From IMG/VR virus record IMGVR_UViG_3300033145_002663, positions 28,470 to 92,469 of that record: a DNA stretch of 64,000 bases. One strand, 5' to 3'. Below, piece by piece: positions 23,230 to 46,375 of the stretch. The position numbers and the translations under genes are program-made. Source of the DNA: a virus. Positions within the stretch are counted from its first letter, which is position 1. Each line of letters starts with the position of its first letter. The notes below the pieces were generated by a model. The model had not been told where the DNA came from. It did not search any database and saw only the letters and a program-made list of their open reading frames with translations.

Positions 23230-23239
23230 TTATCCCTCC

Positions 23240-23494
23240 TTAAATCATCGGTTGATTCCGTTCGGACAGCGGACGACCCACCTCTGGAACTTCCTCAAAA
23301 TATAATTTCATATCCTTATCCAAATCCATTCCGTGAGGCGGTTCTCCATCATCATCGATCAAATAAACATCTGTCCATTGATCCCCTTTATAGTCGTGGC
23401 GACATCGATCAACCTCTTCGTAAATCTTACCTGACGTAAAGACTATCCTGTTATCTTGAATCATCCTAAAGTCTTTCTTGCACAGCCATTTCAT
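23240..23494 (-). CDS. Hypothetical protein, paralogue of 24597-24791
   Basis: MKWLCKKDF.M..DNR.VFT.GK.YEEV. Confidence 0.7.
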   Translation of the reverse strand: MKWLCKKDFRMIQDNRIVFTSGKIYEEVDRCRHDYKGDQWTDVYLIDDDGEPPHGMDLDKDMKLYFEEVPEVGRPLSERNQPMI

Positions 23495-23907: not shown

Positions 23908-23916
23908 AGCTCCTCC

Positions 23917-24597: not shown

Positions 24598-24791
24598 TAT
24601 TCCTCCTTAAAATAATTTAACATGTCTTCTATTAAATCCATTCCATGACGTTCACCCTCATCATCAATCAGAAAAATATCAACCCATTTGTCATGCTTAA
24701 TACGAGAAACTTCCTCGTAAGTTTTACCTGCTGTAAATACCACCCGATTATCATGATTCATTTTAAAGTCTTTTTTACATAACCATTTCAT
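24597..24791 (-). CDS. Hypothetical protein, paralogue of 23240-23494
   Basis: Near-identical N-terminus. Confidence 0.7.
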   Translation of the reverse strand: MKWLCKKDFKMNHDNRVVFTAGKTYEEVSRIKHDKWVDIFLIDDEGERHGMDLIEDMLNYFKEE

Positions 24792-24792
24792 C

Positions 24793-25929: not shown

Positions 25930-25940
25930 TTTTCACCTCC

Positions 25941-26429
25941 TCACTCCCACATATGCCGGAAATCGTTGTTTGGCATGATCCAGAAATACTGATTCAAAAT
26001 AATTCGGCATAGTTTGTGGAGATCGTCGAAATATAACTTATCTTTATCAAAATAGGGTTCCCATGAACCCGACTCAATCACTTTGTGCATATCGTCACAC
26101 TCATATGGGTAGTTTGGATCAAAACCGTACCTTAGAAAATGATCAACCTCCGCTTCGCATCCGTATTGAGTCAGAGTATTATCCAATCTTTGAAAGCATG
26201 TTTCGCAATACGGGGTTCCATCACCATCTGTACCCCAACCACCATCAACATCATACTCGCCATCCGGATCTGATCTTCGGAGATCCTCCACTTTTTTATG
26301 TGCGCAATCATAACAAAAACTTAATCCTTCATCGTATCCGCTGATCCAGTGTTCATTTTCTTCCGTGACGAGCATGGCGCCGGCCAGAAAAACTTCTTCC
26401 AGTCTCATGCGTTCAGTTTTTGTTAACAT
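25941..26429 (-). CDS. Hypothetical protein (CxxC x2)
   Basis: ORF in operon. Confidence 0.6.
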   Translation of the reverse strand: MLTKTERMRLEEVFLAGAMLVTEENEHWISGYDEGLSFCYDCAHKKVEDLRRSDPDGEYDVDGGWGTDGDGTPYCETCFQRLDNTLTQYGCEAEVDHFLRYGFDPNYPYECDDMHKVIESGSWEPYFDKDKLYFDDLHKLCRIILNQYFWIMPNNDFRHMWE

Positions 26430-26436
26430 ACCTTTG

Positions 26437-27303
26437 TTAACATACCACCCCCGCGTACGGCGCCATCTTCTTCATGATCTCAGCTGTGGCGTCCTTTAAA
26501 GTGTTTCGAACTTCCTCGTTCCCCCTGATCTCCTTGCCGGAAAACCGGCACAGTTTTTGCTCGATCTCTTTGGCCATTTCGTCCAGCTTGGGATCGTTGC
26601 CGATGTTCAGCTTGGGCAGCACCGGGAGCAGGTCTTTAATATTCTGCACGATGGAGTTGTGCGGTTTCTTGGACTCCGCCAAACGGTCCGCCATTTTCTT
26701 GATCGGATCGTACAGCTTTTTCCATACACCGGCCATTGCCCCGGCAAACCGGGCAGTGATCTGTTTTTCCAGGTTGTCGTTCAGATAGTCCAGTTCGTCC
26801 TGGGACAGCTTCACGCGCCAGTCCCCCACCGAAGGGATAGGAACAATGTTCAGTTTAGTTCCGAACAGGTCACGAATTTTCGAGACAGCCGGGTAATCCC
26901 CAGCCTTCCACATCGTTCCGAGTAATTCTTTCTCGGCATGAACATAACCGGAATAGTTAATACAGAACTGATCATAGCGATCCTCGAACGTTGAGATTCG
27001 CTGGCGCTGACCGTCCATGTATTCCTGGTGCAGCTCGATGGCCAGAATGCGGTTAACAGGATCCCACGGCAGGGTCATGAGTTTATGAAAGTTCTTAATA
27101 TCGGCGGCCGCGGACTCGTACCCGCTGGTACAATCCTTGGCCATCGTATATTTCGTGAATGATCCTGCCTTTCTCCTGCATCCCTCATTAATCTTGTTTG
27201 TTACTTCCTTGTCCACCCGGTTCGTGCGGTACATGTTCACCTCACATGACACCAGGACGGCTCTTGAGCTTAGGTCTAACAACATTGGTTTTCTCCTTTC
27301 CAA
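26437..27303 (-). CDS. Helical protein typical of AAA/VWA clusters (DUF3150-like)
   Basis: A.LV...TLPW...DYP...KLNI.NDP.L motifs; position between AAA and VWA genes. Confidence 0.6.
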   Translation of the reverse strand: MERRKPMLLDLSSRAVLVSCEVNMYRTNRVDKEVTNKINEGCRRKAGSFTKYTMAKDCTSGYESAAADIKNFHKLMTLPWDPVNRILAIELHQEYMDGQRQRISTFEDRYDQFCINYSGYVHAEKELLGTMWKAGDYPAVSKIRDLFGTKLNIVPIPSVGDWRVKLSQDELDYLNDNLEKQITARFAGAMAGVWKKLYDPIKKMADRLAESKKPHNSIVQNIKDLLPVLPKLNIGNDPKLDEMAKEIEQKLCRFSGKEIRGNEEVRNTLKDATAEIMKKMAPYAGVVC

Positions 27304-27619
27304 AAACTTTTAAGATGCGAATACATTCGGGATGATTTTTATATCCCAAAGCATTTGACACTTCGCGCCAGGTTTTCCCACCACCTCGCATACGTTTAAT
27401 AATTTTCACCTGCTTCATGCGCTGTTCAATGGTAAACCGAGGCTGTCTGCCAGGTTTTCGGTTTAAATTTTTAATAATTTCTTGTCTTTTTTTACGCAAT
27501 TGACATAATTGCATCCGAACGGATCGTTTTTGTTTAAATAATTCGATTTCCTTTTGATTGATTTTATCATCAATCTCGACCAAACGAGCTATTTCTTCAT
27601 CAATGAGTTTTGTTGGCAT
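27242..27619 (-). CDS. Coiled-coil plus HTH protein
   Basis: MRGGGKTWREVSNALGY. Confidence 0.6.
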   Translation of the reverse strand: MPTKLIDEEIARLVEIDDKINQKEIELFKQKRSVRMQLCQLRKKRQEIIKNLNRKPGRQPRFTIEQRMKQVKIIKRMRGGGKTWREVSNALGYKNHPECIRILKVFGKEKTNVVRPKLKSRPGVM

Positions 27620-27777
27620 TAATCGCCTCCGTCGAAATCTAATGAATCTGCATCAGAACCGACGACTTCAAATTGATCGCTACCACACTTGGGGCACCTT
27701 GCTCCGTGTTCGGCCCAATCAATGTCGTTATCGTATGGGCTTGCTGTTTTCCATTGATCATAATTTGTAAACGGCAT

Positions 27778-27972
27778 CTATTCCTCCTTAAACACGCAAT
27801 TTTGACAACGCGTCTTATCTCTACAAAATTTACATACTTTATTGCTGTCTATGGCCTCGCAAGTATGATCGATAATCACTCCTATCGCTTTTGTCATAGG
27901 CACATCCAAAGCCCATGCAATACGCCTCAATGCGCAACTACGCTGATAGTTTAATTCTGGCGTATATGCCAT
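27778..27972 (-). CDS. Small RHH-like protein with Cys-rich tail
   Basis: YTPEL...LRRIAWALDVPMT...CKFC.D..RC..C. Confidence 0.6.
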   Translation of the reverse strand: MAYTPELNYQRSCALRRIAWALDVPMTKAIGVIIDHTCEAIDSNKVCKFCRDKTRCQNCVFKEE

Positions 27973-27985
27973 CTTGCCTCACCCC

Positions 27986-29050
27986 CTACTGCAAATACTG
28001 CCCGTGCTCCGGGAACCACTGCGTGGTGTACGCTTTGTGCTTCATGAGCATGGGGTCTTTGCGGACGATGTCTTTCATTAATTTCATGGACCACTCTTTT
28101 TCCACCCGCATAGAATATGTTACGATGTTCTTAAAGTTGTCCTGATCGGCCATGGATGCCAGCGCGCAGGTCAGCGAGTACATTATGTCAGGCTTACCTG
28201 TGGGAACACCGGCGGTCTTGGGATGCGCCAGGATATTGTCCATGTCCGGCAGCTCGTTATAAACTTTCTCGAATGTCATGAACTCACCGGTGGGCCCCTT
28301 GCCGACCGTGCCGCTTAACAGCTCGAACTTTAAATCCTGCGGCGGGTGCTGCTTTAAAATGTCGGATGTAAATTCCCATGTCCTAGGCGAGGCGAACGCT
28401 TTTTCGTTTTTCTTTTCCGGGTTCTGAGAATCGTTCATCGGGTCAAAGTCCAACAGCAGCTGCGGAAAATTATGAATGAACGCAATCACCATTGGATAAA
28501 TATCAGCGCGGTACGCCCATGTAATCCAATCTTCCTGGCTTACATCGTAGTTAATATGAATGAGCCGGTTCGCCATGGGGGTGCTCATCCGGTGGGTGAA
28601 CGCTCTGTCAATTTCCCGGTTGCCGGCGGCTACGATCCACCAGCCAGGCGGCAGCTCGTACTCCCCGATTTTTCGATCAAGGAATAACTGAAGCAGGGCG
28701 TTCTGTGTGAGCGGCGGTGCTGAGGGCAGCTCATCAAAAAAGATGATGCCCTTGCCTTCCGTCGGCAGGAATGCCGGCGGACACCAGTGCGCTTTCTGGT
28801 CGCCGTTGATTGATGGCAACCCACGAATATCAACAGGATCGAGCAGCAATGCCCGAATATCCCTGAAGCCGTACAGTGCCTTTGCCTTTTGTTTGATTAA
28901 TTTGCAATCACCGCCCTCGGTGGCGTTAAGCCAGTCCACCAGTTGTTGGATGATACATGACTTTCCAACTCCCGGCGGGCCCCATAAAATGCAGGGCAGG
29001 TCGGCGTTTTTAAGAATCTTTAATGATTCAAATACTTGGGTTGGCCTCAT
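27986..29050 (-). CDS. MoxR/dynein-related AAA+ ATPase
   Basis: WGPPGVGKS, FFDEL, IVAAGNR, MANRL, SPRTW. Confidence 0.93.
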   Translation of the reverse strand: MRPTQVFESLKILKNADLPCILWGPPGVGKSCIIQQLVDWLNATEGGDCKLIKQKAKALYGFRDIRALLLDPVDIRGLPSINGDQKAHWCPPAFLPTEGKGIIFFDELPSAPPLTQNALLQLFLDRKIGEYELPPGWWIVAAGNREIDRAFTHRMSTPMANRLIHINYDVSQEDWITWAYRADIYPMVIAFIHNFPQLLLDFDPMNDSQNPEKKNEKAFASPRTWEFTSDILKQHPPQDLKFELLSGTVGKGPTGEFMTFEKVYNELPDMDNILAHPKTAGVPTGKPDIMYSLTCALASMADQDNFKNIVTYSMRVEKEWSMKLMKDIVRKDPMLMKHKAYTTQWFPEHGQYLQ

Positions 29051-29211
29051 TGCTTTCCTCCTTTCTGTTACATCCAAATTTCTCCTGCAGGGAGTACAGA
29101 CATTTGTTGCACTTTGAGCACCTTTCCCGCCTGCAATTTAACTGCTCATCAGTTTCAAGCTCTCCCTTGCACCTTTTACACTTATAAATATAAACCAATA
29201 GTTTCACCTCC

Positions 29212-29976
29212 TTAAATTGGTATTGGATTAACCTTCATGGTCTCTAAATTTACAAAGACACCATGATATTCGATTCGGGTTTCTCGAATTAGTTTCCAGA
29301 GTATGTCCATGCCGAGCATAGCCAGCGTGGAATTGATAAACAGATCCTGCCTGCCTAAAGCCTCGGCAAGGCTGCATGACGGCCCCTGATCTTCCTCGGT
29401 TGCCCGTTCAAACTCGTCATAGAACAATTCCAGCACGTGAGGGAGCTTTTGGGATTGACCATCGGGTTGCTTTATTTCGTCCCATGAGCCAAGCACGGCC
29501 TGACCGGTCTTCTGGGTGTTGCCAAAATCCATCCAGTACATTCCTTCGTTATACTCCTGCCCCCCTCGAACATCCTCGTCCCAAAGTTCCGCCAATGCGA
29601 TGCGTGCTTCAACAGTATCGACACAGGATATAATTATATTGGTGGGATCAATAACTTCGACGGTATCCCTGCAGTACGGGATGGCATTAGCTTCCCATGC
29701 CAGTCCGAAGAACCGGTTTACCCTTGTAATCAGAGCGACGGCTTTGTTCTGCTCGATTTCGGCGGGTGAGAACAATTGTCGCCCGAAGTTGGACTCGCTC
29801 ACGATGTCCGGATCGTATGCCTGAACATAGAACCCAGGGTGCCCCAGGCCCTGCAGGGCGAAGTCCATGCGGGCCAGGCAGGTTAGCACCTGCGATCCGG
29901 TACCGCCGCACCCTACCAGCGCGACGGTGATCGGGTGTGTGGGGTCTAATAAGTATTTGTCAGCGTAGTGAGTCAT
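29212..29976 (-). CDS. PRTRC system ThiF (E1-like) protein
   Basis: VGCGGTGS, D.DIVSESNFGRQLF, CVD, WMDFGN, PSCSLAEALGRQDLFIN. Confidence 0.93.
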   Translation of the reverse strand: MTHYADKYLLDPTHPITVALVGCGGTGSQVLTCLARMDFALQGLGHPGFYVQAYDPDIVSESNFGRQLFSPAEIEQNKAVALITRVNRFFGLAWEANAIPYCRDTVEVIDPTNIIISCVDTVEARIALAELWDEDVRGGQEYNEGMYWMDFGNTQKTGQAVLGSWDEIKQPDGQSQKLPHVLELFYDEFERATEEDQGPSCSLAEALGRQDLFINSTLAMLGMDILWKLIRETRIEYHGVFVNLETMKVNPIPI

Positions 29977-30659
29977 AATAAATCCCCCAGTACCTTTGCT
30001 TTTTTCTTGGAAACCATATGTTTTTTCATGGTTGTTTTAAGGGGGAACCGGCCTCCTTTAGTTATAAGTTTCGTCCAAATAGCATTCAGGTTCTTTCTTC
30101 CCTTGCAGGGATTGGCTACAAAATGAGAAAATTTGGAGTTGAAGAAAGCCGATTCCCAGCCACGGATAATCTGATCAATGGTTTTTCCTTGTATTCTTTT
30201 AGCACTCCCCATACACATATTCCCGTCCTCGTACCTGTTGTGAAACGGGGCATAGTACAGCTCGGTTTCGAGGGTAGGGCGGTCTTTGCCGACGTAGGCA
30301 AACACGGACAGGGTGCTTCCCGTAACCATAAAGATCAAACCGGGGCACCATGCCAGGCCGTCAGGAATGTTCAAGGCGTCCGAAAAATATAGCTGGCGAA
30401 TCATCGGCGGGTAATACCAGAGGGTTTTATGAACATCATGTGTTAATAAATTTACAGGGAACAACCCGGATTTATCCGGCTGATTTTTTTGCTGAAACAG
30501 GGTGATCAAACCTTTCAGGTTTTTCCATGTCAGAGGCTTCCCGCCCAGCAGGGTGCCGTCCCGTGTAATATCATGCAGTTCCGCATAGTAATCTGTATTG
30601 GTGTCCGCCTGATATATCATCAGGGATTTTCTTAGGTGAAAGTTAGAGTAATCCATCAA
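29973..30659 (-). CDS. PRTRC system protein B (prokaryotic E2-like)
   Basis: WY.PP..R.LYF, P.LIF, RPT..T.LY.APF.N...G.MCMG, WESAFFNSKFSH. Confidence 0.88.
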   Translation of the reverse strand: MMDYSNFHLRKSLMIYQADTNTDYYAELHDITRDGTLLGGKPLTWKNLKGLITLFQQKNQPDKSGLFPVNLLTHDVHKTLWYYPPMIRQLYFSDALNIPDGLAWCPGLIFMVTGSTLSVFAYVGKDRPTLETELYYAPFHNRYEDGNMCMGSAKRIQGKTIDQIIRGWESAFFNSKFSHFVANPCKGRKNLNAIWTKLITKGGRFPLKTTMKKHMVSKKKAKVLGDLL

Positions 30660-31879
30660 GCCTCCATTAATTTTTGAGAAACACCTGTCCCCATTTCAAA
30701 AAATTTCATAAGGTTATAAGGCCATTGAGGAACTTTCAGCCTGTTAATTTCCAGGCAATCCTTGCCGGTTAAGTAAAAGTTGTGCACAAACGGAATCATG
30801 CCGACACTATTGCAATATTCTTCAGAATCTCTTAAAACTTCCTCGCCCATATAATCATCCAATGACCATACGAATCGCATATAATTATATGGGTTCGCCC
30901 CATCAATGCCTCGTTCAAATTCATAGTCGAGAAAATCATTATAGTCCAAACCGCTTCTGATTAATTCATACCCCTTAAAGCACCAGCTAAAAATCTCTAC
31001 TTCAAGATCGTTTTCAGGGTTGAATTGAGCGAGCATTTGCGCAAAATCATCTATGGAAAAATTCAGCCGATTAATACAATTTTCATAGAAACCGGGTTCA
31101 CCTTTCATGTATTTATGAATCATGTCTGAATAATACGAAATTAAACCTTCATCCGGATCGTCCTCATATTTTTCTTCCCCGATGCGCTCATCAAAATAAT
31201 CAAGCATACGCTCATCCATATCCATGTGCGGCATATTGCAATGCTTGTTTAACAAGCTCATCATGGATAGAATTAAATTATAAATCTTACGATTTTGATT
31301 CTTTAGTTTTGGCAGGTATTCCAGGGAGAGCATATAAATATCATACTCACAGACATTAGAGTATTTATGGTAAACTCGAATCAAATAGTTTGGTGACTCG
31401 ATTATTTCCCATTGAAAATCATTCGGGATGAGTCCGTGCAGTTTTTCAAGGATCGTGCCCAGCACTTTCCAGGTTGGTGTGTTTTTATCTAAGTCCGGTA
31501 TGGAAATTTCATAGTTTTTTAAGATGTTTCGTATTTCCCTTATGGCTTGAAGTTGTTTTCTTTCTGAATCAAACATTCCGTAGTGCAATTTCGCACACAC
31601 CTCCAGCTCGTGCTTTACGGCAGGCACACCATGCAGGGCGGGGCAGGTAATCGCTCGGGCCGCTCTATGCCGGTCCGGTATGCCCTGTCGGAGTCCACCA
31701 GCAGGCGCCCGACACCGTTGTGCAGCATTTTGAGCTGTTTCTCCTTTTTTTTCCTGCATTTTTTCACCTTCAAATATTCTTCGAGTGTCATTGTCTGCTA
31801 CTCCAATCGGCATACTCATCAACGTCATCGTTCTGTTTGGTTTTAAAGCAGTACTCCGATAAAAAATGGAGGCCTTCAC
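30656..31879 (-). CDS. Probable PRTRC system protein F (start uncertain)
   Basis: Size and position between proteins C and B; N-terminal ~90 aa overlap other small ORFs. Confidence 0.5.
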   Translation of the reverse strand: MKASIFYRSTALKPNRTMTLMSMPIGVADNDTRRIFEGEKMQEKKGETAQNAAQRCRAPAGGLRQGIPDRHRAARAITCPALHGVPAVKHELEVCAKLHYGMFDSERKQLQAIREIRNILKNYEISIPDLDKNTPTWKVLGTILEKLHGLIPNDFQWEIIESPNYLIRVYHKYSNVCEYDIYMLSLEYLPKLKNQNRKIYNLILSMMSLLNKHCNMPHMDMDERMLDYFDERIGEEKYEDDPDEGLISYYSDMIHKYMKGEPGFYENCINRLNFSIDDFAQMLAQFNPENDLEVEIFSWCFKGYELIRSGLDYNDFLDYEFERGIDGANPYNYMRFVWSLDDYMGEEVLRDSEEYCNSVGMIPFVHNFYLTGKDCLEINRLKVPQWPYNLMKFFEMGTGVSQKLMEA

Positions 31880-32099
31880 CCACCGGGCGACCGCACCCGC
31901 AGGAGCAGAGCTTTATTTTCTTGGGATCCTTTTTTTCGTCCTTGTGCGCTCTGTAATAATCCCTGCATCTTTTACGGTGCATATCTTTGTTGCACTCCGG
32001 ACAATATTTTCGACGGGCAGCAAAGTGGTTTGCCACCTTAAATATCTTGCCGCACTTGGGGTTTTGGCATATTACGGTGAGCATGATAACTCCTGGCAC
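31788..32099 (-). CDS. Zinc-finger protein
   Basis: CQNPKC...YCPEC...CSCGC..EYC. Confidence 0.6.
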   Translation of the reverse strand: MPGVIMLTVICQNPKCGKIFKVANHFAARRKYCPECNKDMHRKRCRDYYRAHKDEKKDPKKIKLCSCGCGRPVGEGLHFLSEYCFKTKQNDDVDEYADWSSRQ

Positions 32100-32263
32100 T
32101 CATATTTCTTGAGCATTTTTATGGCGTTCCGGTAATTTTTAAACCTTAAGAAGTGACGCAGTTTTTTTAGCTGAGCCTGGGGAAAGCCAAAATAGCAATA
32201 CTGACGCGATTCCCAGGCCACCTCCAGCTCGCCGTATGAGTTGTAATTAATGATTTCTATCAT
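32072..32263 (-). CDS. KTSC-like small protein
   Basis: YNSYGELEV.W...Y.YFGFP resembles the KTSC pattern. Confidence 0.4.
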   Translation of the reverse strand: MIEIINYNSYGELEVAWESRQYCYFGFPQAQLKKLRHFLRFKNYRNAIKMLKKYECQELSCSP

Positions 32264-32370
32264 CTTTCACCACCTCATGAATTTTCCATGCGATATCCAT
32301 GAATTCAGCAAGGCGTTCACCCTGCTGATCCATGGATAAAAATTTAAAGGGCGGTATGTCTTTGATTTGA

Positions 32371-32577
32371 TTATAGAGCTTTTGCTCCATCTCTTGCCGG
32401 GTCATTCTCCTTTATTACCTCCTTAATAATATTAGCTAATGCTACTATAGCAGCACCCTGATTCCCAAAGTATTCAGCTACAGTTTTTCCATTGAAGGGT
32501 TGACCATCAAAGTGCTTTGCATCATTTGATGTATTAGTAATTATTAAATCTAAAACCCTAATCTTCCTCTCGTTCAT
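32371..32577 (-). CDS. Hypothetical protein
   Basis: Coupled ORF. Confidence 0.55.
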   Translation of the reverse strand: MNERKIRVLDLIITNTSNDAKHFDGQPFNGKTVAEYFGNQGAAIVALANIIKEVIKENDPARDGAKAL

Positions 32578-32759
32578 TCAGTCACACCTCCTCCATACCA
32601 GGCATGGACCGTGCCGGTTTCTTCGTCCACCAGAAGATCCAATGCCACGAAATTAAAGTGGCGAAACATTGCCAGTGCTTCGCCACTTAAACCTAATTTT
32701 TCGCCCATATCTTCCATGTACTCCCGATCCAGTTCAGCTTGAACGGATACTTTTCTCAT
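32574..32759 (-). CDS. Hypothetical protein
   Basis: Coupled ORF. Confidence 0.55.
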   Translation of the reverse strand: MRKVSVQAELDREYMEDMGEKLGLSGEALAMFRHFNFVALDLLVDEETGTVHAWYGGGVTE

Positions 32760-32761
32760 AC

Positions 32762-32980
32762 CTATCCTTTCATCCCCACGGATGTGGAAAACTTGTACTC
32801 GGCTACACCGTCCTTGATTTCCGGGCCGGTAACCGTGGCAGTGGTTAGTTCGGGGTAGGTGTTGCTGTAAAACTGCAACACGTCGTGCGGGGACATCTCA
32901 GGGGCGGGATCGGTGAGCGGTTCGCCCTTATGAAGAAACACCCGTTTTATATTCGTTACGTCTAATGCCATTTGAGCCAC
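32762..32980 (-). CDS. PRTRC system protein C (ubiquitin-like)
   Basis: RVF...L.DPAP.MSP.DV..FYS..YPELTTA.V.GP.....Y.F..SVG.KG with terminal Gly. Confidence 0.93.
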   Translation of the reverse strand: MAQMALDVTNIKRVFLHKGEPLTDPAPEMSPHDVLQFYSNTYPELTTATVTGPEIKDGVAEYKFSTSVGMKG

Positions 32981-32986
32981 CCCCTT

Positions 32987-33364
32987 TTATGTAAACAAAC
33001 CTGGTTGTTGACTGACAGCACCAGGTGTCTTAACCGGCGCGGCCTTCTTTTTCACGGTCTTGTCGGTCTTTTTCACCACGGCTCGCTTTTGTTTCTCGAC
33101 CAGATCGTTATACTCGTCTATGGAACTCATTAAACCATGGGTCGATCGGCCGGCTCTTGTCAGTTCATTAATGAACCCCTCGTCCAGTTCTTTGGGAGTT
33201 CCGGATATAACCAGCGGTTTAACCTCAATCTTATCCGCTTTCTCATCCGTCTGTTTGGGCAGCACGCTCACGGCGATTTTCCCATGAACAGGCTTGCTGA
33301 TAACCATTGTTATTGTTAACTTACCCGATTCTATGACCGGGTAAATTCGTTCAAAAAACTCCAT
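32987..33364 (-). CDS. PRTRC system protein E
   Basis: MEFF...VSVLPK...PLVISGTPKELDEGF. Confidence 0.9.
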   Translation of the reverse strand: MEFFERIYPVIESGKLTITMVISKPVHGKIAVSVLPKQTDEKADKIEVKPLVISGTPKELDEGFINELTRAGRSTHGLMSSIDEYNDLVEKQKRAVVKKTDKTVKKKAAPVKTPGAVSQQPGLFT

Positions 33365-33399
33365 GCGTTTCCTCCTTTTGGGCTAATAAAATACCTCTT

Positions 33400-33439
33400 T
33401 TATACTCCAAAGTGAACATAAGTCAAGTAAAAAATGACT
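33400..33439 (-). promoter_or_regulatory. Promoter for the PRTRC-led transcript
   Basis: Minus strand GTCATTTTTTACTTGACT-16 nt-TATAAA. Confidence 0.6.
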
Positions 33440-33472
33440 TTCAAGGAATATAAAAGAGGGGTTCGCTGATAT

Positions 33473-34777
33473 CTAACTGTTTATTCCCATGATAGCGGCT
33501 TTTAAATTTCCGCCTTCGAAAAACACGGGTTTCATCGAATCATCGGACAGCTTCAGGGTAACTTTTTTACCCACGTGCTTCAGGGCGTCCGCGACATAGC
33601 CCGTATTCAACCGGACGGTCATTTCGGGATCAACCTTGCCTTTGAGAAACGGTACGTCAAACCTGCGGTATTCTCCCTTGTCGTCATTGGCAGCCTCGAC
33701 GTTCATCACGCCGTTGAGTGTGAAATCCGCGACCTCGGAGATCAGCCCGACCTGTTTTACGACGTCTTTGAACACGTCGTTGTCAATCTCGATGCTGTGA
33801 ACGGTTTTCGTACCGTTCATAAATCCCATGTAATCCGGGAAATTAACGTCTTCATCCTTGGTCAACACGGTCAGCTTGCCGTAGGTAAATTGAGCCCGGC
33901 TTCCGTTCTTGTCGATCTTCATGGTAACATCTTTGTCCTTGGCAACTTTCGCCAAAGTTCCCAGAGCACCCGCCGGCAGCGTGATGTTTTGCTTCAGGTT
34001 GATCTGATGCTTCAGCATGTGCAAACGGTTACCGTTGGTGGACACCAGATTTTTCTCCTTGGCATCGAACATAACAACCGTTTGATGCGGCGAAGCGTCA
34101 TCTTTGTAATTGCAGGCATCCGTCAAGCTTCTCAGGTCATCACCCTTTATGGTGGCAACCTGAGTCCCGGTAAATTCTCGAGCATCAGGGAACTCTTTGA
34201 TGTCGGTCAGCGGGATGCGCTGAAAATGCTCCCCGATTGCCAGGGCCGTTGCGTTGACACCCTCGGTCAAAAAGTCCGATTTTTGCTCGAACTCCTCAAC
34301 ATGAAGATCAATAACATCCCCGGAATTCTCGGAATTCACGATCTTAAGCAGGTGGTCCGGGTCTACCAGGAACCGTTCGTCAACCTCGGTCTCGGGCGGC
34401 GGCAGTTTCTCCTCGGTCTGGGCGGCGGCTTCGCTGGCATTAAATATCGATTCAACCATATCAGCTTTCTTGGCCTTCTCGCCGAGATCGATGCCGGCGT
34501 ACTCGCACAGATCGACAAGCTGCCCGACCTTCAATGATTTCAGGTCTGTGGTAAGGTCTTCGTCCGGATGCACCACGGCGGGTTTTTCGCCAACGATTTT
34601 CTGCTTGTAATCAGTCAGCGAAATCGCTACCTCACCCCTGGTCTGCATATCCGTTGCGATGATCTTCTGGCTGGGGCCATCAATCAAAACTTTTCCCAGC
34701 TCCGGATAGGACTTACCATTTTTAAACCCTTTGACCATTTTCAGGCCCTCTACAAGGTCTTTCTTTGCTACTTTCAT
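33473..34777 (-). CDS. dnaN: DNA polymerase III beta sliding clamp homologue with inserted helical domain
   Basis: IIATD, EFP, LVSTNGNRLH, FPDY, LN.GY..DAL, KPV.F....AAIM; start after AGGAGG SD. Confidence 0.8.
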   Translation of the reverse strand: MKVAKKDLVEGLKMVKGFKNGKSYPELGKVLIDGPSQKIIATDMQTRGEVAISLTDYKQKIVGEKPAVVHPDEDLTTDLKSLKVGQLVDLCEYAGIDLGEKAKKADMVESIFNASEAAAQTEEKLPPPETEVDERFLVDPDHLLKIVNSENSGDVIDLHVEEFEQKSDFLTEGVNATALAIGEHFQRIPLTDIKEFPDAREFTGTQVATIKGDDLRSLTDACNYKDDASPHQTVVMFDAKEKNLVSTNGNRLHMLKHQINLKQNITLPAGALGTLAKVAKDKDVTMKIDKNGSRAQFTYGKLTVLTKDEDVNFPDYMGFMNGTKTVHSIEIDNDVFKDVVKQVGLISEVADFTLNGVMNVEAANDDKGEYRRFDVPFLKGKVDPEMTVRLNTGYVADALKHVGKKVTLKLSDDSMKPVFFEGGNLKAAIMGINS

Positions 34778-34875
34778 ATGCACCTCCTTTGAAATAAATT
34801 TACCGAACCATACAGCCCGGCCGGATCTTATGAATCCGTGAGAACCGTCGAATTTTTTCAACAGCTCTCATGGAG

Positions 34876-35229
34876 TCACACTCGGGTTAAATCTTTATAC
34901 TTCGTTTTTAATCGAGCTATCGTTCCTCGATCTGCCATACTGTAAAACGCCCTATCGCCGACGATCAGGTGTTCGTGTATTGTGACACCAACCGATTGCA
35001 GGGCGATCATCAGTTGAAAGGTGATAGAAAGATCTTCAGGCGACGGATCGGAACTTCCTGAAGGATGGTTGTGGCAAAAAATTACCGCTGCGGCTTGTTC
35101 CTGGGCAGTCAAAGGTTTCATAATATTATATAACTCCTCAGAGTTATTTACCTTTTGCCCTTTAATATTTTCCTTAACCATTGTTGCAAATTTACCGGAT
35201 ATCAAATCCTGATAGAACTTACAATTCAT
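34876..35229 (-). pseudogene. radC: RadC/JAB domain protein with internal in-frame deletion
   Basis: AAAVIFCHNHPSG..DPSPED..IT...HEHLIVG present; central segment (..G.....V.PREV..) absent. Confidence 0.75.
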
Positions 35230-35249
35230 GCTACCACCTCCTTTTTCGC

Positions 35250-35278
35250 TTGACATTATCAATCAAAAATATTAGATT
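35250..35278 (+). promoter_or_regulatory. Sigma70 promoter
   Basis: TTGACA-17-TAGATT. Confidence 0.6.
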
Positions 35279-35285
35279 TTTCTCT

Positions 35286-35501
35286 ATGGAAAAAAAACAT
35301 GGCGGGGCGAGGGCAGGGGCAGGACGACCCAGGGGTTCAAAATCTCCAAAGACGAAATTCAAGCCGAAACATCTTCAGAGAACAGAGGTATTTTTGGGCA
35401 TTCTACGGGTAACAAAGGTGGAAATGAACCAGCTGAAAAGCCGGATCAGGAAGTCCGGCTTATCGGCCAGTGAGTGGGCGAGGCGAAGATTGTTGGGTTA
35501 G
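35286..35501 (+). CDS. Small DNA-binding protein (GGARxGAGR motif plus RHH-like tail)
   Basis: HGGARAGAGRPRG...LRVT..E...L......SGLSASEWARR. Confidence 0.7.
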   Translation: MEKKHGGARAGAGRPRGSKSPKTKFKPKHLQRTEVFLGILRVTKVEMNQLKSRIRKSGLSASEWARRRLLG

Positions 35502-35775
35502 CATTATTTTCGAACCATTCCGAAAAATTTATGCAGACTATTTCCGGATTCATCATAAAATCTCTGATTTTCTTCCTGAGATTTCTCCAGCTCATCGGTT
35601 AAAAGCAGTAATTTTCTCAATAGATCTCACCTCCTTTTTTTAGGCTCATCCTCTTTTCTCAAGAGTTAGCCTCCCCAGGGGGGCTCGCCATTACCACCAG
35701 CCTGGGGATTAAATGTAATCACAACATGTTCTGTTTTTTCCTTTCTCAAAATGGATTTTTTCTCTTACTTAAGAT

Positions 35776-35961
35776 TTACTTTTTGTAAATGTTGATACCC
35801 ATGATCGCATCTGTGCCATCAATCTTCTGGTTTCCCTCGGTGCTGGCGATGCGGATGGTTTTTCCTGACTTTGACCGGCCAAATTCCTTGGTCAGGTCAA
35901 TCTCGATCGTCATTTTTCCTTCTTTGACCTCGTAGGCCACATTCGTTCCGACAGTTTGCAT
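35776..35961 (-). CDS. Conserved small hypothetical protein
   Basis: IEIDLTKEFG.SKSGKTI.IASTEGN; AGGAGG SD. Confidence 0.75.
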   Translation of the reverse strand: MQTVGTNVAYEVKEGKMTIEIDLTKEFGRSKSGKTIRIASTEGNQKIDGTDAIMGINIYKK

Positions 35962-36156
35962 AATTTTCTCCTCCTTTTTTTTCCAACATTAATAATTAAA
36001 AAACCTTGACATATAAAACTAATGTGGGGTATATAAGAACCATGACATGCCAATTCCCACATACACAAATTGCTAAAACCACCCACATTGTAGTACCTTT
36101 TTCGCAATTCTCCAAAAAAAATTCAAAAAAATAACACCTCGTAACTAATTAAAATC

Positions 36157-36462
36157 ATTCAATGAGTAAGATGATTAACAACTAGTAAGAACTTTTGGCC
36201 TTGTTCTTACTCACTAGTATCCTTTATTATTTCCAATGGTTATCTCCACCGGGGACACTCGTGCAGAAAAAAGTTCTTACTCACCTTTTTTCTCTTATAT
36301 TTCCAATGGTTATCTATTGATTTTTTTCTATGAGTAATAAGTATAGGGGGAAAAAGTTTTCAAAAAAGTGAGATCCTAATTACTCGGGTTAGTCATCAAT
36401 GATAACAGGGGTTTACAGCGAAAAAGTTCTTACTCACACGTTAATCATGTTACTCATTGAAT
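36157..36462. repeat. Iteron-like TTACTCA(C/T) cluster bounded by ~40-bp inverted arms (candidate origin)
   Basis: 36157-36196 vs reverse complement of 36422-36462; GTTCTTACTCAC x3; TATTTCCAATGGTTATCT x2. Confidence 0.7.
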
Positions 36463-36928
36463 AATTTCCATGGGTTAAGTGTGTTTTTCGCTGCTTTTTT
36501 GATTATTGGTCAAGAAAATTCAACGAAAAACAGCGAAAAAATGCCCTATATTCCCAAGAGAGAATATATAGGCAAGAAATCTGTCAAGCCTGACCCTTTT
36601 TCGCAGGCACGTTATTTGCATAGAGCTAAAAAATGAGTTTTGGTGCAATGAATTTCCAGACGTGAAAAGCCATGTATGAGATGGCCAAAGCATAGAAAAT
36701 TTTCTCCATCAATTTTAAAATCATCATATTTTTTTCCACCCCCTTTATAGAAAAATAAACTTCATAGAAATTCCACCCAGGGTGAGCATGGAATTTCTAT
36801 CAAACCTATTTTTTCCCTCTGCATTTCGGACATAATTTTTCGTGCTCCCTGTTTATAAAGATCACACAAGTTTTCCGTCTGCACTTTTCACATTTCATGG
36901 CAGTCCCCCTTCCGTGCGTACGCACGCA

Positions 36929-36968
36929 TAAAAAAAACCGGAGGGCATACTCGATGCGCCTCCGGTTC
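36929..36968 (-). terminator. Intrinsic terminator after ParB gene
   Basis: ACCGGAGG...CCTCCGGT stem followed by T8. Confidence 0.85.
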
Positions 36969-37000
36969 TGTGTATTAAAACCTCCCCTATATAAAGCGAT

Positions 37001-37942
37001 TTATACCACGGCTTCTTTTTTCTGAACTCGAAATTCATTGAGGGTTTCGAGTAAATTGCTTGCGATTTTCGCCATCTCTTTTGCCGTTCTTTCAATCTCC
37101 GGCAATTTCTGCTTGTTGCAGAGGATGAGCATTTTCGACTCGCCATTGGTAAATGGCGACTGTGAAAATTTCTCCATCTGATTCTTGATCTGACCAAATA
37201 ACACCTTTGCAGCCTTGCGAGTTTTCTCGTCTGCTCCGTCTTTAATCTCCGCCCACAAACTCATCTGGTTATACTCGGCTAAATAGGCATCAACTTTTTT
37301 CAACATCACATCAGCGGTTCTGCCGTTTTTCGCCCATGAATAAGCCTTCTCGAATTGACTCGGCTTAAGAGAAGCGATTTTCCTTGCCACAGGTTTCGGC
37401 AGTCGGCCTTGATCCCACTCTCTTTTCATGAGTGTCGGCAGTTGCAGAATAGGGAGATCCGCCTCGATCATAGCTACGGATTTTCCAAAAGCCTTCGCAA
37501 CTTTTTCCATCGGAAGCTCATGCTCATTCAAAGCTCTGTCAATGGCTTCCAAGGTTTCCAGCGGATCCATGTTTTTCCTGACCAGGTTATCCATGATTTG
37601 ATTCAGAAAAACATCGGCCTGAGTCATGGGTTTTTCGTAGACCCTCGCCAAGATGTAAGTTTTTCCATCTTCGATCTTGAAACCATGACGGGGTTGACCA
37701 TCCCAAAATTCCTTAATAAACATTGAAACAGCAGTCAGCCGACATTCTCCATTCATCAGCATTTGCCATCCCGGAGTCTTGGGGTGCGGAAAAACATCAA
37801 TAGCGTTTTTCATGCCTTCATTCGCTATGGAAACCGCAAGTTCGCCCTTGATGTAAGACTGGGGCTTGTTTTTTCTTGGCTGATTTGGGTCAGCCTCGAT
37901 GTAATCGACATTGACATATTCATACTTGTAATCTTCTTGCAT
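37001..37942 (-). CDS. parB: ParB/Spo0J-family protein
   Basis: DPNQPRK, LA.SI...G, NGECRL.A, Q.MDNL.R.NMDPLE, HTH VAKAFGKS. Confidence 0.9.
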   Translation of the reverse strand: MQEDYKYEYVNVDYIEADPNQPRKNKPQSYIKGELAVSIANEGMKNAIDVFPHPKTPGWQMLMNGECRLTAVSMFIKEFWDGQPRHGFKIEDGKTYILARVYEKPMTQADVFLNQIMDNLVRKNMDPLETLEAIDRALNEHELPMEKVAKAFGKSVAMIEADLPILQLPTLMKREWDQGRLPKPVARKIASLKPSQFEKAYSWAKNGRTADVMLKKVDAYLAEYNQMSLWAEIKDGADEKTRKAAKVLFGQIKNQMEKFSQSPFTNGESKMLILCNKQKLPEIERTAKEMAKIASNLLETLNEFRVQKKEAVV

Positions 37943-38024
37943 AATTTTTTCCCTCCCATTTTATTGGTTGTTGTGAAAATACCTGAGCCGAGCAAACATT
38001 GGCTCAGCGATTGCCACAACTGAG

Positions 38025-38059
38025 AGGAAAAGAAACGCCGGGCTGGTTAAGCCCGGCGT
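38025..38059 (-). terminator. Intrinsic terminator or attenuator upstream of parB
   Basis: ACGCCGGGCT-TAACC-AGCCCGGCGT then TTCTTTT. Confidence 0.7.
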
Positions 38060-38219
38060 GGGAAAGCACAAATTTAAGGTTGAAAATTTTCCAAGCCGCT
38101 GAATATTTTCCATGAGATTTTATCCCGCAAATCCGTATAGCTAACAATCCCTGCCACATGGATTTAAAAAACCCATTGCCTAATTGAAAGCAAGATAAGC
38201 AGTTCCACCTCACTTCCAA

Positions 38220-38870
38220 AATTCAGCCCGGATGTTACCATCCAGTATGTGGCCGGAGAAAATATCCAACCGCCCAATATTAACCCACTATGAGCACGGA
38301 CTGACCTTTTAGCGTGTTTCAGCTCACGGAGGATCTTTCATCCACAGTCATTGGCCAGACATAGACCGCATTTCTAACCGTTAGCGTGGTAGGCACACGG
38401 AGGGACTTTGCCCCACAGTCAGCCCGCTGTTTGTGAGGGGATCAGAGGACTACCACCCCACCAATCAAAAATACCAGGATAACCGATTGGCAAATTATCC
38501 ATCCTGCAATCTGTGCGCATAGAAGGCGCACCGCTCGATCCGTATTTCAGGCTCCCTTGCGACCATGATGTTACAGGACGGCATATCGGTCGCATTGGTA
38601 TATCCAAGTGTTAGCGTCATGGCAGTTGGGCTTTATTCAGCCCGCAGCTCCGCAATACAGCATCCCGGCTCCGTGGCTTAATAATCAAGCTCACAAAATA
38701 TGCCGATCACACGTTACGGCAATCAAGCCATAGTTGATGAAGGGCATCCTATACACAGCGAGCCTCAAGCCGTGTGTAGGATCTTAGCCAATGAGTTTTA
38801 TGGGCGACAAGCTGACTGGCAGGTTAGGCCGCCAGGATGAGGCCGGTTGCTCTATGGCCGTTCAAGTTGT
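38220..38870 (-). ncRNA. Candidate large structured RNA (unassigned family)
   Basis: No credible ORF, GC-rich, more than 10 hairpins with G-U pairs and a GUAA tetraloop on the minus strand, duplicated junction module with compensatory changes. Confidence 0.55.
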
Positions 38871-38875
38871 TCGGG

Positions 38876-38917
38876 TGTCCAGAAAGTGAACACCACTGTC
38901 CAGAAAGTGAACACCAC
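38876..38917 (+). repeat. Perfect 21-bp tandem repeat x2
   Basis: TGTCCAGAAAGTGAACACCAC twice. Confidence 0.95.
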
Positions 38918-39153
38918 TGTCTCAAGTTAAAATGATACATTTATGTCCCGAATAATCTGATACAGTTTTGTATCGGTGAGACATGTCTCAAGTTATACAC
39001 ACTTGTGTCTCAAATTATTGAGGCAGAAGTGTATCAGCATAATGAGACAGGTGTCTCGGATTAGATGAAACAATAGTGTCTCAATTAAAATGAGACGGTT
39101 TGAAATAAATCATCTTTAAAATAGTGTCTTAAAAATTAATGAGACACTATTTT
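38918..39153. repeat. Array of TGTCTCA-N6/8-TGAGACA dyads
   Basis: Seven dyads starting 38918, 38944, 39006, 39030, 39052, 39077, 39125 plus half sites at 38969-38990. Confidence 0.85.
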
Positions 39154-39437
39154 AGAAAAAATTTATTAAATAATCGGTTTTGCCTGAAAATTTTTCAGGG
39201 TTTCAATGTTAACAAGTTTTTTTGTTCTGAAAACTTTTGACTTTGATTTACGAATAACGGTTACTTTTTTACGGTTCATAAAACACCTATTTTTTAAAGG
39301 TTAAATATCTTTTCAAATATATAGACGTTTCAAATTCAAAAAAATTACAAAAAAGATTTATACTGATATTTAATTAATTATCAATAGGTTATAATGATTT
39401 ATTAATAAACTGATAAAAATAAATAGAAAAATAATGT

Positions 39438-39465
39438 TTGACAAGATTAATCATACATATAGAAT
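39438..39465 (+). promoter_or_regulatory. Strong sigma70 promoter
   Basis: TTGACA-16-TAGAAT with A-rich UP region. Confidence 0.7.
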
Positions 39466-39507
39466 GTATATCAATATCAACCATTAAATAGAAAGGAAGG
39501 TGTAACC

Positions 39508-40845
39508 ATGCAATTAGTTATTAAGGAAGCATACAACCCAGAAAGTAAAGAGTATGAACCAAAAGTTTTTGACAAGAGGGATTTATACAACCCAGAACCA
39601 AAAACAGAAAAGGAAGGTGTAACCATGCAAACAAAACAACTATTAAGGCTGTATTCACAAAAAATGAGTCAGTTCCAAAAATTGAGATTGCAGGATACAA
39701 AAGGCATAAGTCAAAAACAGATAATCATGCAAGATATTTTGAATGAAAGTATGATTAAATTACTTGCATTATCTGAAAAGGAAACCATTAAAAATGTTGA
39801 ACATCTTTTTAATAAGACGTTACGCAATACCACTATTGATAAAATGAGATCGTTTGAAACGTCTGAAAACATCATTGAATTTTTTGACTCATACAATGAT
39901 ATTGAAAAGAGTACGGATTTCACGCAATACAATAATTACAAAGGACTATTAAAACACGTTTTGAAAAAACTTAAAAAGAAAGTCAATAAAAAACTTTTTG
40001 TCCTGTATCATGTCAAAGGTATGAGTCAAAAAGAAATTGCTTTAAAATTATATCCAAATTTAACAGAAAATAATGCAAGGGTTAAAACTAACAGAACCAT
40101 AAAAGCATTGAATCAAAAATTATACCGAATGAAGTTAAAAAATCTTTACAGAACTGAATTTGCTACACCTTGCACGACACAGGATAAAAAACTTCCAAAA
40201 TACAAAGATCATACACCCAGTAACGCAGTAAAAATAAAACGTGAATACGGACCTTTTAAAGGGCAAGTGGCATACCTTTACAAGTCTGATCTGCTTGACA
40301 AGGAAACTTTTGACAAGGAAACCTTTGATAATAACTTAAAACTTGCTAATAATAGAGGATATTTGGCAACTAAAACAAGTCAAGGTTATACAAGTGATAA
40401 CCATATAACATACGATTTCACAAAGTACGCTGGGATTGCAGTTAAAAATAACTTTTATATAAATCATTCTTTTACAAGTACGCCTTTTGGAGTGAAGGCC
40501 ATACCTTTAGTTAATAGCATAAGCACTTATAAAAAGTGGGTAACAGATAACCTTTATGAAAAGAGTATGATATTTAAAAAACAAGACGTTACTGTCAAGG
40601 GTTATGATCGAATAGGTTGTTTGTACTCGAATAATCAGGCAAGTATTGACAAGTTTTATAATCAGGTTACACCTAAAAGGATTGTAATTAAAACAATTAA
40701 CAAGGGTTATCTGCTTTATAGCCATAAGATTTCAAAGGATATAACCCTGACTCATAACAAAACAAAAGAACATTACACGGTAACCATACCAAATAGTCAA
40801 AGGGTTGTTGAATCAACTAACTTTAAATTGAGATATGCGGAATAG
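39508..40845 (+). CDS. ECF-type sigma factor with long C-terminal extension
   Basis: Region 2 QDILNESMIKLL...LFNKTLRNTTIDKMR; region 4 LFVLYHVKGMSQKEIALKL...NARVKTNRTIKAL. Confidence 0.7.
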   Translation: MQLVIKEAYNPESKEYEPKVFDKRDLYNPEPKTEKEGVTMQTKQLLRLYSQKMSQFQKLRLQDTKGISQKQIIMQDILNESMIKLLALSEKETIKNVEHLFNKTLRNTTIDKMRSFETSENIIEFFDSYNDIEKSTDFTQYNNYKGLLKHVLKKLKKKVNKKLFVLYHVKGMSQKEIALKLYPNLTENNARVKTNRTIKALNQKLYRMKLKNLYRTEFATPCTTQDKKLPKYKDHTPSNAVKIKREYGPFKGQVAYLYKSDLLDKETFDKETFDNNLKLANNRGYLATKTSQGYTSDNHITYDFTKYAGIAVKNNFYINHSFTSTPFGVKAIPLVNSISTYKKWVTDNLYEKSMIFKKQDVTVKGYDRIGCLYSNNQASIDKFYNQVTPKRIVIKTINKGYLLYSHKISKDITLTHNKTKEHYTVTIPNSQRVVESTNFKLRYAE

Positions 40846-44452: not shown

Positions 44453-46375
44453 GTGGCTGGTAAAAAATCATACGCTGCATACCGGAAGGGCGCTGACGGT
44501 CTGATTTTATGGGCTGAAGATTGTGTCTGGGTTTCTATCTATCCCGTTGGCTCCGAATTTGCGGTCTGGGTTCCGCTGGGTTCCGCGAACCTGCCCGATA
44601 CTATTATTTGTCCGGAGACCGGGCAGCCGTATTGTGAGATGTGGTGCAAGGTGAATCCGGAGACCGGGCGGTCGTACCAGTATATGTGGGAAAAACAGAA
44701 GGAGGTGTTGCGGGAAGCCCTGGTTATGGAGGGAGGTAAGTTCCGGTACCGGCTGATTGTGTTATGTTGGCCCCGGGGAGAGGGTAAATCTTTTTTAGCG
44801 GTTTTAATTTTAAAGTGGAAGTGGCATTGCTGGCCGAAACAGGATATCCGGTTGTGCGCGAACAGTAAAGAGCAGACCGGTCATGCGCATTTAAGCATTG
44901 CCAAAGACATGATTTTAAACTCTCCCAAGCTGTTAAAGAGTGTCGGCAAGAAAAATATTTTAGAAAAAGAGATTCGAAGGAGGGACTCCCGGGGGAATGT
45001 GGTAAGCAAGCTGGAGATTATTTCTTCAGCGAGCGGTATTTTCAGCAATATTAACGGGTACGCTTTTTCCGAAATATTTGAGCTCAAGAATCGCACGTTC
45101 TGGGACAAGGTTGACGGCAATATTCGTAATGTTCCGAACGCATTCGGCGTGATTGATTCCACGGTTTCTTCAAAAGAGCACCTGCTGTATATTTTATACG
45201 ATGGGTTTGTTAAGGGTGAAGATCCGCTCACATATTTTTCATATCGTTGCTCCGAGAAACTGGACTATCGTGATTACTGGCATCCGAACCAGACCCAGGC
45301 TCAGTTAAATTCGTACAAGTCCAAACAGCCGCTGACTTACGCTAAGCAGTTCAAGAATTTATGGAGTGCCGGCGCCGAGAAGATTTTCTCTGCCGATCAG
45401 GTCGAGGCCATGAATTACATGGGTGCCGAGGGAGTTGTGGATCATCGGAGGGTAATAGAGCTGATTCAGCGCAAGCACCAGATTATCGACAGCGAATCCG
45501 GGCCCGTGTCCAGGGGTGTCGAGGTTTACAACCAGGATCTGGAGATCAACCATGTGGAATCATTGCTGTGGCCGGTAAACGATATTTATTCTTTGGTTCC
45601 CACCCATACCGGGTCTGTCATGGCATCGCACGAAGTGCTGGATGTTCTGGGCGACATGTTTGATACCGAGTGGGCCGTGATTGCCGGGATTGACCGTGCC
45701 CAGCCGTTTAAGCGTCGAACCGATGCCCGCACGATTTATGTTGCCATGGCCAAAGGTTTGGTAGGTAGCCGTAGCAATCCGGATGTTGGTATTATTCCGC
45801 CGGCACCGTCATTGGAGATCAAGGGTTCCGGTGAGTATATGATGCGAGGTCCGGCATATATTTATTTTTATTTGCAGATCGCGGATATTATCGATCACTC
45901 CCTGGAAGGTTTGAAGGATGAGATTTTATTGACGCACGAAGAATTTGACGGTATTGACACGATTGGTTCCGAGACGTGGGGTGTGTTTGATTTAAAGCCC
46001 TGGGCCGAGACGATTGATGTTGAGGTGAACTTGTGGCAGCCGACTTATGCCCGGCAGCTGGGGGCATTCACCGAATTGTTCACCCTGGTTAATGATGGGA
46101 GATTAAAGACCCCGCCTGTCTCGATTGTCGGCGCGAAAGAGGGCGATATTGTTAATGAGGAGATGAATAATTTTGATCACGATGATGATATTCGCTGGTT
46201 TGGGAGTCCTGAAAAGAACGCCAAGGGCGGTATTCAGGACGACGTTGTTTATGCCACGGGCTGGTGTATTTATGGGGGCCGCGAATTAACCATCCATAAT
46301 TTTAGGCCGAGGCTGAAATCCATGTTTACAGGGACGATTATTCAACCGACCGGTTTATTGGGGGATTGGGGATAA
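44453..46375 (+). CDS. terL: Terminase large subunit
   Basis: WEKQ adenine motif, PRGEGKS Walker A, ANSKEQ, GIDRA and QDDVVYA nuclease residues. Confidence 0.88.
   Translation: MAGKKSYAAYRKGADGLILWAEDCVWVSIYPVGSEFAVWVPLGSANLPDTIICPETGQPYCEMWCKVNPETGRSYQYMWEKQKEVLREALVMEGGKFRYRLIVLCWPRGEGKSFLAVLILKWKWHCWPKQDIRLCANSKEQTGHAHLSIAKDMILNSPKLLKSVGKKNILEKEIRRRDSRGNVVSKLEIISSASGIFSNINGYAFSEIFELKNRTFWDKVDGNIRNVPNAFGVIDSTVSSKEHLLYILYDGFVKGEDPLTYFSYRCSEKLDYRDYWHPNQTQAQLNSYKSKQPLTYAKQFKNLWSAGAEKIFSADQVEAMNYMGAEGVVDHRRVIELIQRKHQIIDSESGPVSRGVEVYNQDLEINHVESLLWPVNDIYSLVPTHTGSVMASHEVLDVLGDMFDTEWAVIAGIDRAQPFKRRTDARTIYVAMAKGLVGSRSNPDVGIIPPAPSLEIKGSGEYMMRGPAYIYFYLQIADIIDHSLEGLKDEILLTHEEFDGIDTIGSETWGVFDLKPWAETIDVEVNLWQPTYARQLGAFTELFTLVNDGRLKTPPVSIVGAKEGDIVNEEMNNFDHDDDIRWFGSPEKNAKGGIQDDVVYATGWCIYGGRELTIHNFRPRLKSMFTGTIIQPTGLLGDWG

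Follow-up and report, generated by a model that had tools for sequence, protein, structure and literature searches.

In the DNA of an uncultured phage, the stretch between a parB-like gene and an AT-rich spacer holds no recognisable gene, which raises the question of what this region encodes. The window, by which we mean the whole 64-kb stretch of DNA that was analysed, is part of a 92.5-kb IMG/VR virus record. An initial annotation of the window had proposed that the region forms a large structured RNA that heads a leftward arm of 22 kb and acts either on its own or as an antiterminator or regulator of that arm. In this study, we found that the gene-free stretch 5' of parB most likely encodes a folded RNA of ~850 bases, as judged from a comparison with two related phages. 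It would most probably be a structured non-coding RNA of a family that is absent from Rfam 15 and that has three members, all of them in uncultured phages.

Gene context and coding content

The phage of the window is tailed, and its genes include those for an HK97-type major head protein, a head protease and a divergent large terminase. The terminase protein gave no match at 1e-5 in a tblastn search of INPHARED (50,697 phage records); thus, the phage has no cultured relative and a host could not be assigned. The terminase gene (44453-46375, plus strand) is very divergent; its best PHROG match has an E-value of 2e-9.

The candidate RNA sits where the leftward and rightward gene blocks diverge (Table 1). 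The leftward block comprises parB and the genes for a RadC-like JAB protein, a beta-clamp and PRTRC proteins, and the rightward block comprises the sigma-like gene, the terminase and the head genes. The GC content is 0.43-0.53 across the RNA region, as against 0.18-0.30 in the spacer and the sigma-like gene to its right. The region had been described as ~930 nt without a credible gene, and our data agreed with this description. The longest open reading frame (ORF) in 37945-38870 is 71 aa when all frames are considered, and the short ORFs of the region, which range from 33 to 71 aa, are as expected of any sequence of 50% GC. No conserved reading frame was found between the RNA regions of the window and of the related contig L002 by six-frame tblastn. 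The matches were short and equally weak in all six frames, indicating conservation of the DNA without coding.

Repeats were also observed on both sides of parB. An inverted repeat with 20-nt arms (80% complementary) is located at 37970-38020, between the terminator and the ribosome-binding site of parB, and a shorter palindrome occurs at the matching place in L002; this repeat could be an operator or a translational hairpin. A repeat block 3' of parB (36142-36477 in the window, 6416-6735 in L002) is kept in DNA at 74-87% over pieces of 48-90 nt in both orientations, and it may be a centromere or an origin.

Table 1. Position of the candidate RNA, its parts and its neighbours in the window
Feature	Position	Strand	Description
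Whole candidate RNA	38025..38880	-	ORF-free; minus-strand fold z -3.77; homologous stretches at the same place in L002 and L033
Core common to the window and L002	38221..38694 (L002 4230-4697)	-	nhmmer E 3e-27; helices H0-H14
3' domain	38221..38350	-	Sole part detectably conserved in 3/3 phages besides the tail; five helices, two GNRA-type loops; R1 match
H2, long-range helix	38624-38619/38456-38451	-	Within the core common to the window and L002
H3	38593-38588/38564-38559	-	Compensatory or one-sided changes in L002
H5	38531-38527/38517-38513	-	Compensatory or one-sided changes in L002
H6	38491-38485/38466-38460	-	Compensatory or one-sided changes in L002
H13	38271-38265/38257-38251	-	Compensatory or one-sided changes in L002; co-varies in L033
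H14, GNRA hairpin	38245-38239/38234-38228	-	Co-varies in L033
Tail word, two direct copies	38084-38093 and 38103-38112	-	8-10 nt; just 5' of the terminator
Intrinsic terminator ending the RNA	38035..38059	-	10 pairs, 8 of them G-C, then a T-run
parB-like gene	37001..37942	-	Pfam HTH_ParB E 4e-8; PHROG ParB-like; 92 nt 3' of the terminator
Repeat and dyad array	38876..39170		Between the RNA and the AT-rich spacer; sequence phage-specific
Divergent sigma-like gene	39508..40845	+	Region-4 HTH, 445 aa; Pfam Sigma70_r4_2 E 4e-4; PHROG sigma factor E 3e-4

Homologues in related phages

Gathering homologues through the relatives of parB was one of the checks suggested by the initial annotation, and it yielded two, L002 and L033. 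Both are related uncultured phages that carry the candidate RNA at the same place and in the same orientation (the IMG/VR entry L135 is the same contig as L033). L002 is an IMG/VR contig of 59.8 kb that was reached via ParB anchoring, L033 is an 89-kb metagenome contig, and each of their ParB proteins is 44% identical to that of the window. The terminase and the next large gene show ~69% DNA identity between the window and L002, which indicates that L002 is a true relative of the window phage.

In an nhmmer search, the RNA region aligned to L002 4263-4867 on the parB strand with an E-value of 3e-27. The RNA core is ~72% identical between the two, with invariant blocks of 18-31 bases, and it is about as conserved as the terminase DNA, while the ParB protein encoded next door is far less so. 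Besides the RNA, the only DNA matches between the window and L002 around parB are 30 nt within parB and the repeats 3' of it; this 30-nt match aside, the parB gene cannot be aligned as DNA. L002 shows the same order: its divergent gene and AT-rich spacer are followed by eleven tandem repeats of 13 bp, a stretch free of ORFs, a hairpin rich in GC (4859-4883) and finally parB (4983).

A covariance model of the 3' domain with its five helices (window 38221-38350), named R1 and trained on the window and L002, was searched over 100 sources totalling 760 kb. It matched its two training sequences and L033 2901-3048 (33 bits, E 4e-7, full model length). In L033, the divergent gene (1198-2043, minus strand) is followed by an AT-rich spacer that contains two ~40-bp repeats, by ~1 kb of ORF-free sequence rich in GC and by a terminator at ~3285-3318; between the RNA and parB lie four small ORFs and another gap of 325 nt. 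This gap (4665-4990) is the own upstream region of parB in L033, and it contains a palindrome with 16-nt arms and a run of ~27 A. A model of the middle domain (R2) gave nothing above 6 bits on L033. The 5' and middle domains of the RNA are not claimed for this phage, and only the 3' domain and the tail are common to all three. The candidate RNA measures ~850-1000 nt in the three contigs, which all carry the HK97-type head, protease and terminase genes of tailed phages, and it was found in one copy per phage in the two records that were searched whole.

Other searches did not extend the family. The region had no blastn match among INPHARED phages or PLSDB plasmids, and a 23-mer scan of GTDB genome contigs was also negative. 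In IMG/VR, the word taken from the tandem module found nothing and that of the GNRA hairpin found only the contig of L002; the word of the second conserved block found, beyond this contig, a single chance match (L108), which was rejected as it lies inside a 537-aa ORF and shows no nhmmer similarity. A degenerate word built on the three phages found only the two contigs already known. The ParB-anchored searches gave only L002 above 30% identity in IMG/VR, L033 as the sole further carrier in JGI metagenomes and nothing above ~30% identity over >70 residues in GTDB genomes, and a search of IMG/VR anchored on the sigma-like gene gave only the contig of L002. The upstream flanks of L034, L035 and L038 were present without the conserved words, and L034-L038 had no R1 match at E up to 10; the flanks of the ParB relatives P0002 and P0003 (66-69%) lay outside the homologue search. 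In a survey of IMG/VR published in 2023, the candidate structured RNAs were reported to measure only 29-151 nt, and at least three IMG/VR regions were required for each (PMC10690425).

The sigma-like protein of the window is 31% identical (E 5e-30) to the product of the divergent gene of L002 (2746-3684, minus strand), and the latter matches the product of the divergent gene of L033 over the HTH region with an E-value of 1e-4. L033 lacks a counterpart of the C-terminal ~230 aa of the window protein. The AT-rich sigma-like gene was also considered as a foreign island, and this idea was rejected as the gene is a conserved divergent gene in L002 and L033. Repeat arrays are located at 3950-4090 in L002 (13-bp tandem repeats) and at 2161-2290 in L033 (two ~40-bp repeats). 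On this comparison, the conserved module is the sigma-like gene, the AT-rich spacer, a phage-specific repeat array and the RNA. The initial annotation had the RNA heading and controlling the 22-kb arm, and this claim was not supported: in L033, the four small ORFs and the 325-nt gap come before parB. The neighbours that are constant in all three phages are the sigma-like gene and the repeat array, and parB is not always adjacent.

Secondary structure, strand and family assignment

The minus strand of the region folds with -283.8 kcal/mol, which corresponds to z -3.77 against dinucleotide shuffles, while the plus strand of the same region reached only z -0.90. A folding energy no better than that of shuffled controls had been named beforehand as evidence against an RNA, and the minus strand was better than its shuffles. 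Similarly, the RNAs of L002 and L033, folded alone, gave z -5.9 and -5.7 in the sense and -4.3 and -3.6 in the antisense orientation, respectively.

Covariation was a further check suggested at that time. When the 3' domain is aligned across the three phages, its 5 helices comprise 27 pairs, which are 98.7% paired, and 13 of the 27 changed on both sides; these counts from three sequences lean toward structure, as the model that aligned L033 had been built from the two remaining sequences, and the margin is still large, since partners slid by 1-3 columns gave only 34-46% paired cells and 1-2 pairs changed on both sides. None of 500 shuffles reached the observed values of pairing and covariation. 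Between the window and L002, the helices H0-H14 contain 87 pairs, of which 54 are unchanged, 11 changed on one side and 22 compensatory, with none broken. These helices were chosen by hand, and hence the pairs of the window were also mapped onto L002 independently by MAFFT only, which kept 66 pairs (9 of them compensatory) and broke 17, whereas slid partners kept 19-27. RNAalifold on the sequence-only MAFFT alignment of the window and L002 gave z -3.6 for the sense strand versus -2.1 for the antisense strand, relative to column shuffles. The six stems listed in the initial annotation were all present at their places and five of them recur in the relatives; the sixth, in the 5' part near 38815-38835, turned out to be a local hairpin of this phage only.

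Both GNRA-type loops of the 3' domain remain GNRA although their letters change, and one hairpin of this domain is longer in L033 and is capped by another GNRA loop. The two GNRA-capped hairpins suggest a compact tertiary fold. Of the 79 cells in this alignment, 11 hold a G-U pair, which would be an A-C mismatch on the opposite strand. The G-U cells and the retained GNRA loops establish that the sense strand of the RNA is that of parB, which agreed with the earlier argument that the G-U pairs and the GNRA loop favour the minus strand. The 5' two-thirds appears to consist of hairpins that the close relatives share and that have given way to others in the distant phage. The window also contains two tandem copies of a junction module on the minus strand (38385-38420 and 38313-38350). 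In L002, only the second hairpin of the first copy is kept, and an extra hairpin (4556-4572) precedes the second copy, as it also does in L033.

A search of the window with cmscan against Rfam 15 at the gathering score gave no match. For positions 37700-39600, only noise was obtained at E up to 10, the top score being 24.9 bits against a threshold of 70 and falling on the terminator hairpin, and nothing was found at the L002 and L033 loci at E up to 1. The initial annotation had assigned the RNA to no family, and Infernal with Rfam agreed for all three copies.

Terminator, tail word and promoters

The intrinsic terminator that had been proposed between the RNA and parB is real, and in strength it far exceeds every other such site in 18200-38100. 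L002 and L033 have a GC-rich hairpin at the matching position, with a T-run after it in L033 and only three T in L002. The distance from the terminator to the next ORF is 92 nt in the window (parB), ~98 nt in L002 and ~15-60 nt in L033 (the first small ORF). In none of the three phages did the search reveal a sigma-70-type promoter-like site in the interval from the terminator to the next ORF, so that the downstream genes may depend on read-through, as would suit a leader. Within 18200-38100, there are 29 terminator-like sites versus 22 +/- 5 in shuffles, none of them near the strength of that at 38035-38059, and promoter-like sites inside the leftward arm lie near 33415-33475 and 36087-36114.

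No sigma-70-type promoter for the RNA strand was found in L002 or L033, and the minus-strand promoter candidates of the window lie only at 39289-39444, to the right of the repeat array. The 5' end of the candidate RNA may be further right than the limit given in Table 1, in or past the array.

Just 5' of the terminator, the tail carries direct copies of a short word, of which the window and L002 have two each and L033 has three. Over 7-8 nt, this word is perfectly complementary in every one of the phages to the loop and 3' strand of H13, and none of the remaining 7-mers of the core finds two complementary sites there. Elsewhere in the window, the enrichment that would mark a genome-wide promoter or operator word was not seen (14 matches versus 11 +/- 3.5 expected). 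The duplexes of the H13-H14 segment with the tail have energies of -34.9, -33.7 and -28.7 kcal/mol and z-scores of -3.6, -2.8 and -1.1 in the window, L002 and L033, respectively. This complementarity may represent an alternative long-range helix, an intermolecular contact, or the DNA sites of one protein in both orientations. The tail of L033 additionally repeats the changed 3' strand of H14. For each of the phages, RNAduplex paired upstream segments with the arms of the terminator no better than it did 200 shuffles (z +1.0 to -1.6).

Proposed role of the RNA and alternatives

The reading that we prefer, and to which we give about an even chance, is a stand-alone RNA whose terminator acts constitutively, while read-through would supply the genes downstream. 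Transcription of the minus strand would start at a promoter in or past the repeat array, run the same way as that of parB and stop at the intrinsic terminator (38059-38035). The conserved heart of the RNA would be the ~130-nt 3' domain with its five co-varying helices. It would most likely function by itself, be it as a scaffold, a decoy or the partner of a phage protein, and the divergent sigma-like regulator would be the obvious candidate for a partner because it always accompanies the RNA, together with the repeat array. As a side effect, the terminator would limit transcription running on into parB. The constant presence of the sigma-like gene and the varying downstream genes favour such a stand-alone RNA.

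A bolder proposal, which we put forward only tentatively, is that the RNA belongs to an undescribed class of ornate phage RNAs (~0.85-1 kb) that work with the sigma-like factor. Such an RNA could form a multimer through pairing of the H13 loop with the tail word, or it could serve as a decoy or modifier of the polymerase or of the sigma-like protein that times the replication/ParB/PRTRC arm.

Alternatively, the region could be a cis-acting leader of the parB/replication/PRTRC operon, in which the terminator would be a regulated gate opened by a factor that renders the polymerase resistant to terminators, in the manner of HK022 put RNA or the ConAn system of pLS20, or by a protein that binds the tail word. 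Its placement agrees with this, as the RNA lies on the same strand and in a promoter-proximal position in all three phages, with the strong terminator 60-100 nt ahead of the next ORF, no sigma-70-like promoter between them and 2-3 copies of a conserved word just before the terminator. It is also reported that long terminator-bearing leaders precede large operons of mobile elements (PMC13401043, PMC8191782). The genes that such a leader would control are, however, not the same, being parB in two phages but the four small ORFs in L033, whose parB is preceded by a 325-nt region of its own, and the conserved domain lies 150-250 nt from the terminator with non-conserved sequence between. A leader comes second among the readings, and we find it rather doubtful. 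A refolding attenuator in particular is unlikely, since no upstream segment competes for the terminator arms beyond the level of shuffles and no excess of terminators follows. The case for processive antitermination is weak because the terminator-like sites of the arm are at chance level and promoter-like sites exist inside it; nothing that we found points to the antiterminator suggested in the initial annotation.

An element that acts as DNA, such as a replication origin or a partition or packaging site beside the iteron-like array, where single-stranded DNA would form hairpins or proteins would bind in both orientations, seems improbable to us. It would account for the AT-rich spacer and repeat arrays that adjoin the region in all three phages, for the tail word and its complement in H13 as sites of one protein in opposite orientations, and for the antisense strands of L002 and L033, which also beat their shuffles. 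It would not account for helices that stay paired via G-U intermediates mismatched on the other strand, for GNRA loops kept as a class while their letters change, or for a strand-specific terminator that closes the region and a fold z that is always better on the sense strand. Protein sites on double-stranded DNA would also leave the 13 compensatory pairs in 130 nt unexplained. This strand-specific covariation is poorly compatible with a decayed gene as well, and although short ORFs are present, we consider a pseudogene remnant or a set of several short peptides very improbable, as the six-frame comparison gave no frame-specific signal, the stem substitutions are compensatory and the region is ORF-free in three phages whose proteins diverged to 44% identity.

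Comparison with known systems

To our knowledge, very few bacterial or phage RNAs of more than 500 nt with a conserved fold are known. RNase P, the group I and II introns, OLE, GOLLD, ROOL and HEARO each led to new biochemistry or new structures. The case for a new RNA family is built here on three sequences. The defined set of genomic partners, namely the sigma-like gene, the repeat array and the ParB arm, makes the function of the RNA experimentally approachable given a host or a synthetic system, and the conserved domain of 130 nt is small enough for structure probing or cryo-EM.

The put RNA of phage HK022 is an RNA-only processive antiterminator of ~70 nt with two stem-loops. Like put, the candidate RNA would be a phage RNA just 3' of an early promoter and 5' of a terminator, on the strand of the operon. 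It is, however, more than 10 times larger, and the terminator-like sites that it would have to overcome in its arm are not above chance level.

A long non-coding leader with a terminator directly before a very long operon is reported for the zipper-type attenuator cATT and the ConAn leader of the pLS20 family (PMC13401043, PMC8191782). The candidate RNA is also non-coding, with a terminator directly before the first gene. It differs from these leaders in having about double their length and a conserved domain remote from the terminator, and the complementarity between an upstream segment and the terminator, which is the defining trait of cATT, is absent.

GOLLD (RF01998) and ROOL (RF03087) are similar in several respects. 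The candidate RNA shares with them the size class of 0.6-1 kb, the location in phages, the many helices, the GNRA-type loops and a conserved core with a variable periphery, and at more than 500 nt, multi-helix and phage-encoded, it falls within the size range of these RNAs. On the other hand, their covariance models did not match it in cmscan even at E 10 (L002 and L033 at E up to 1). GOLLD and ROOL often neighbour tRNA genes, whereas ARAGORN found no tRNA in the 64-kb window, and the three members of the candidate family all lie beside a sigma-like gene and a repeat array. GOLLD and ROOL were reported to form RNA-only multimers (bioRxiv 10.1101/2024.12.08.627333). The candidate RNA has a loop that is complementary to a word repeated 2-3 times in its own tail, and this could likewise give RNA-RNA contacts.
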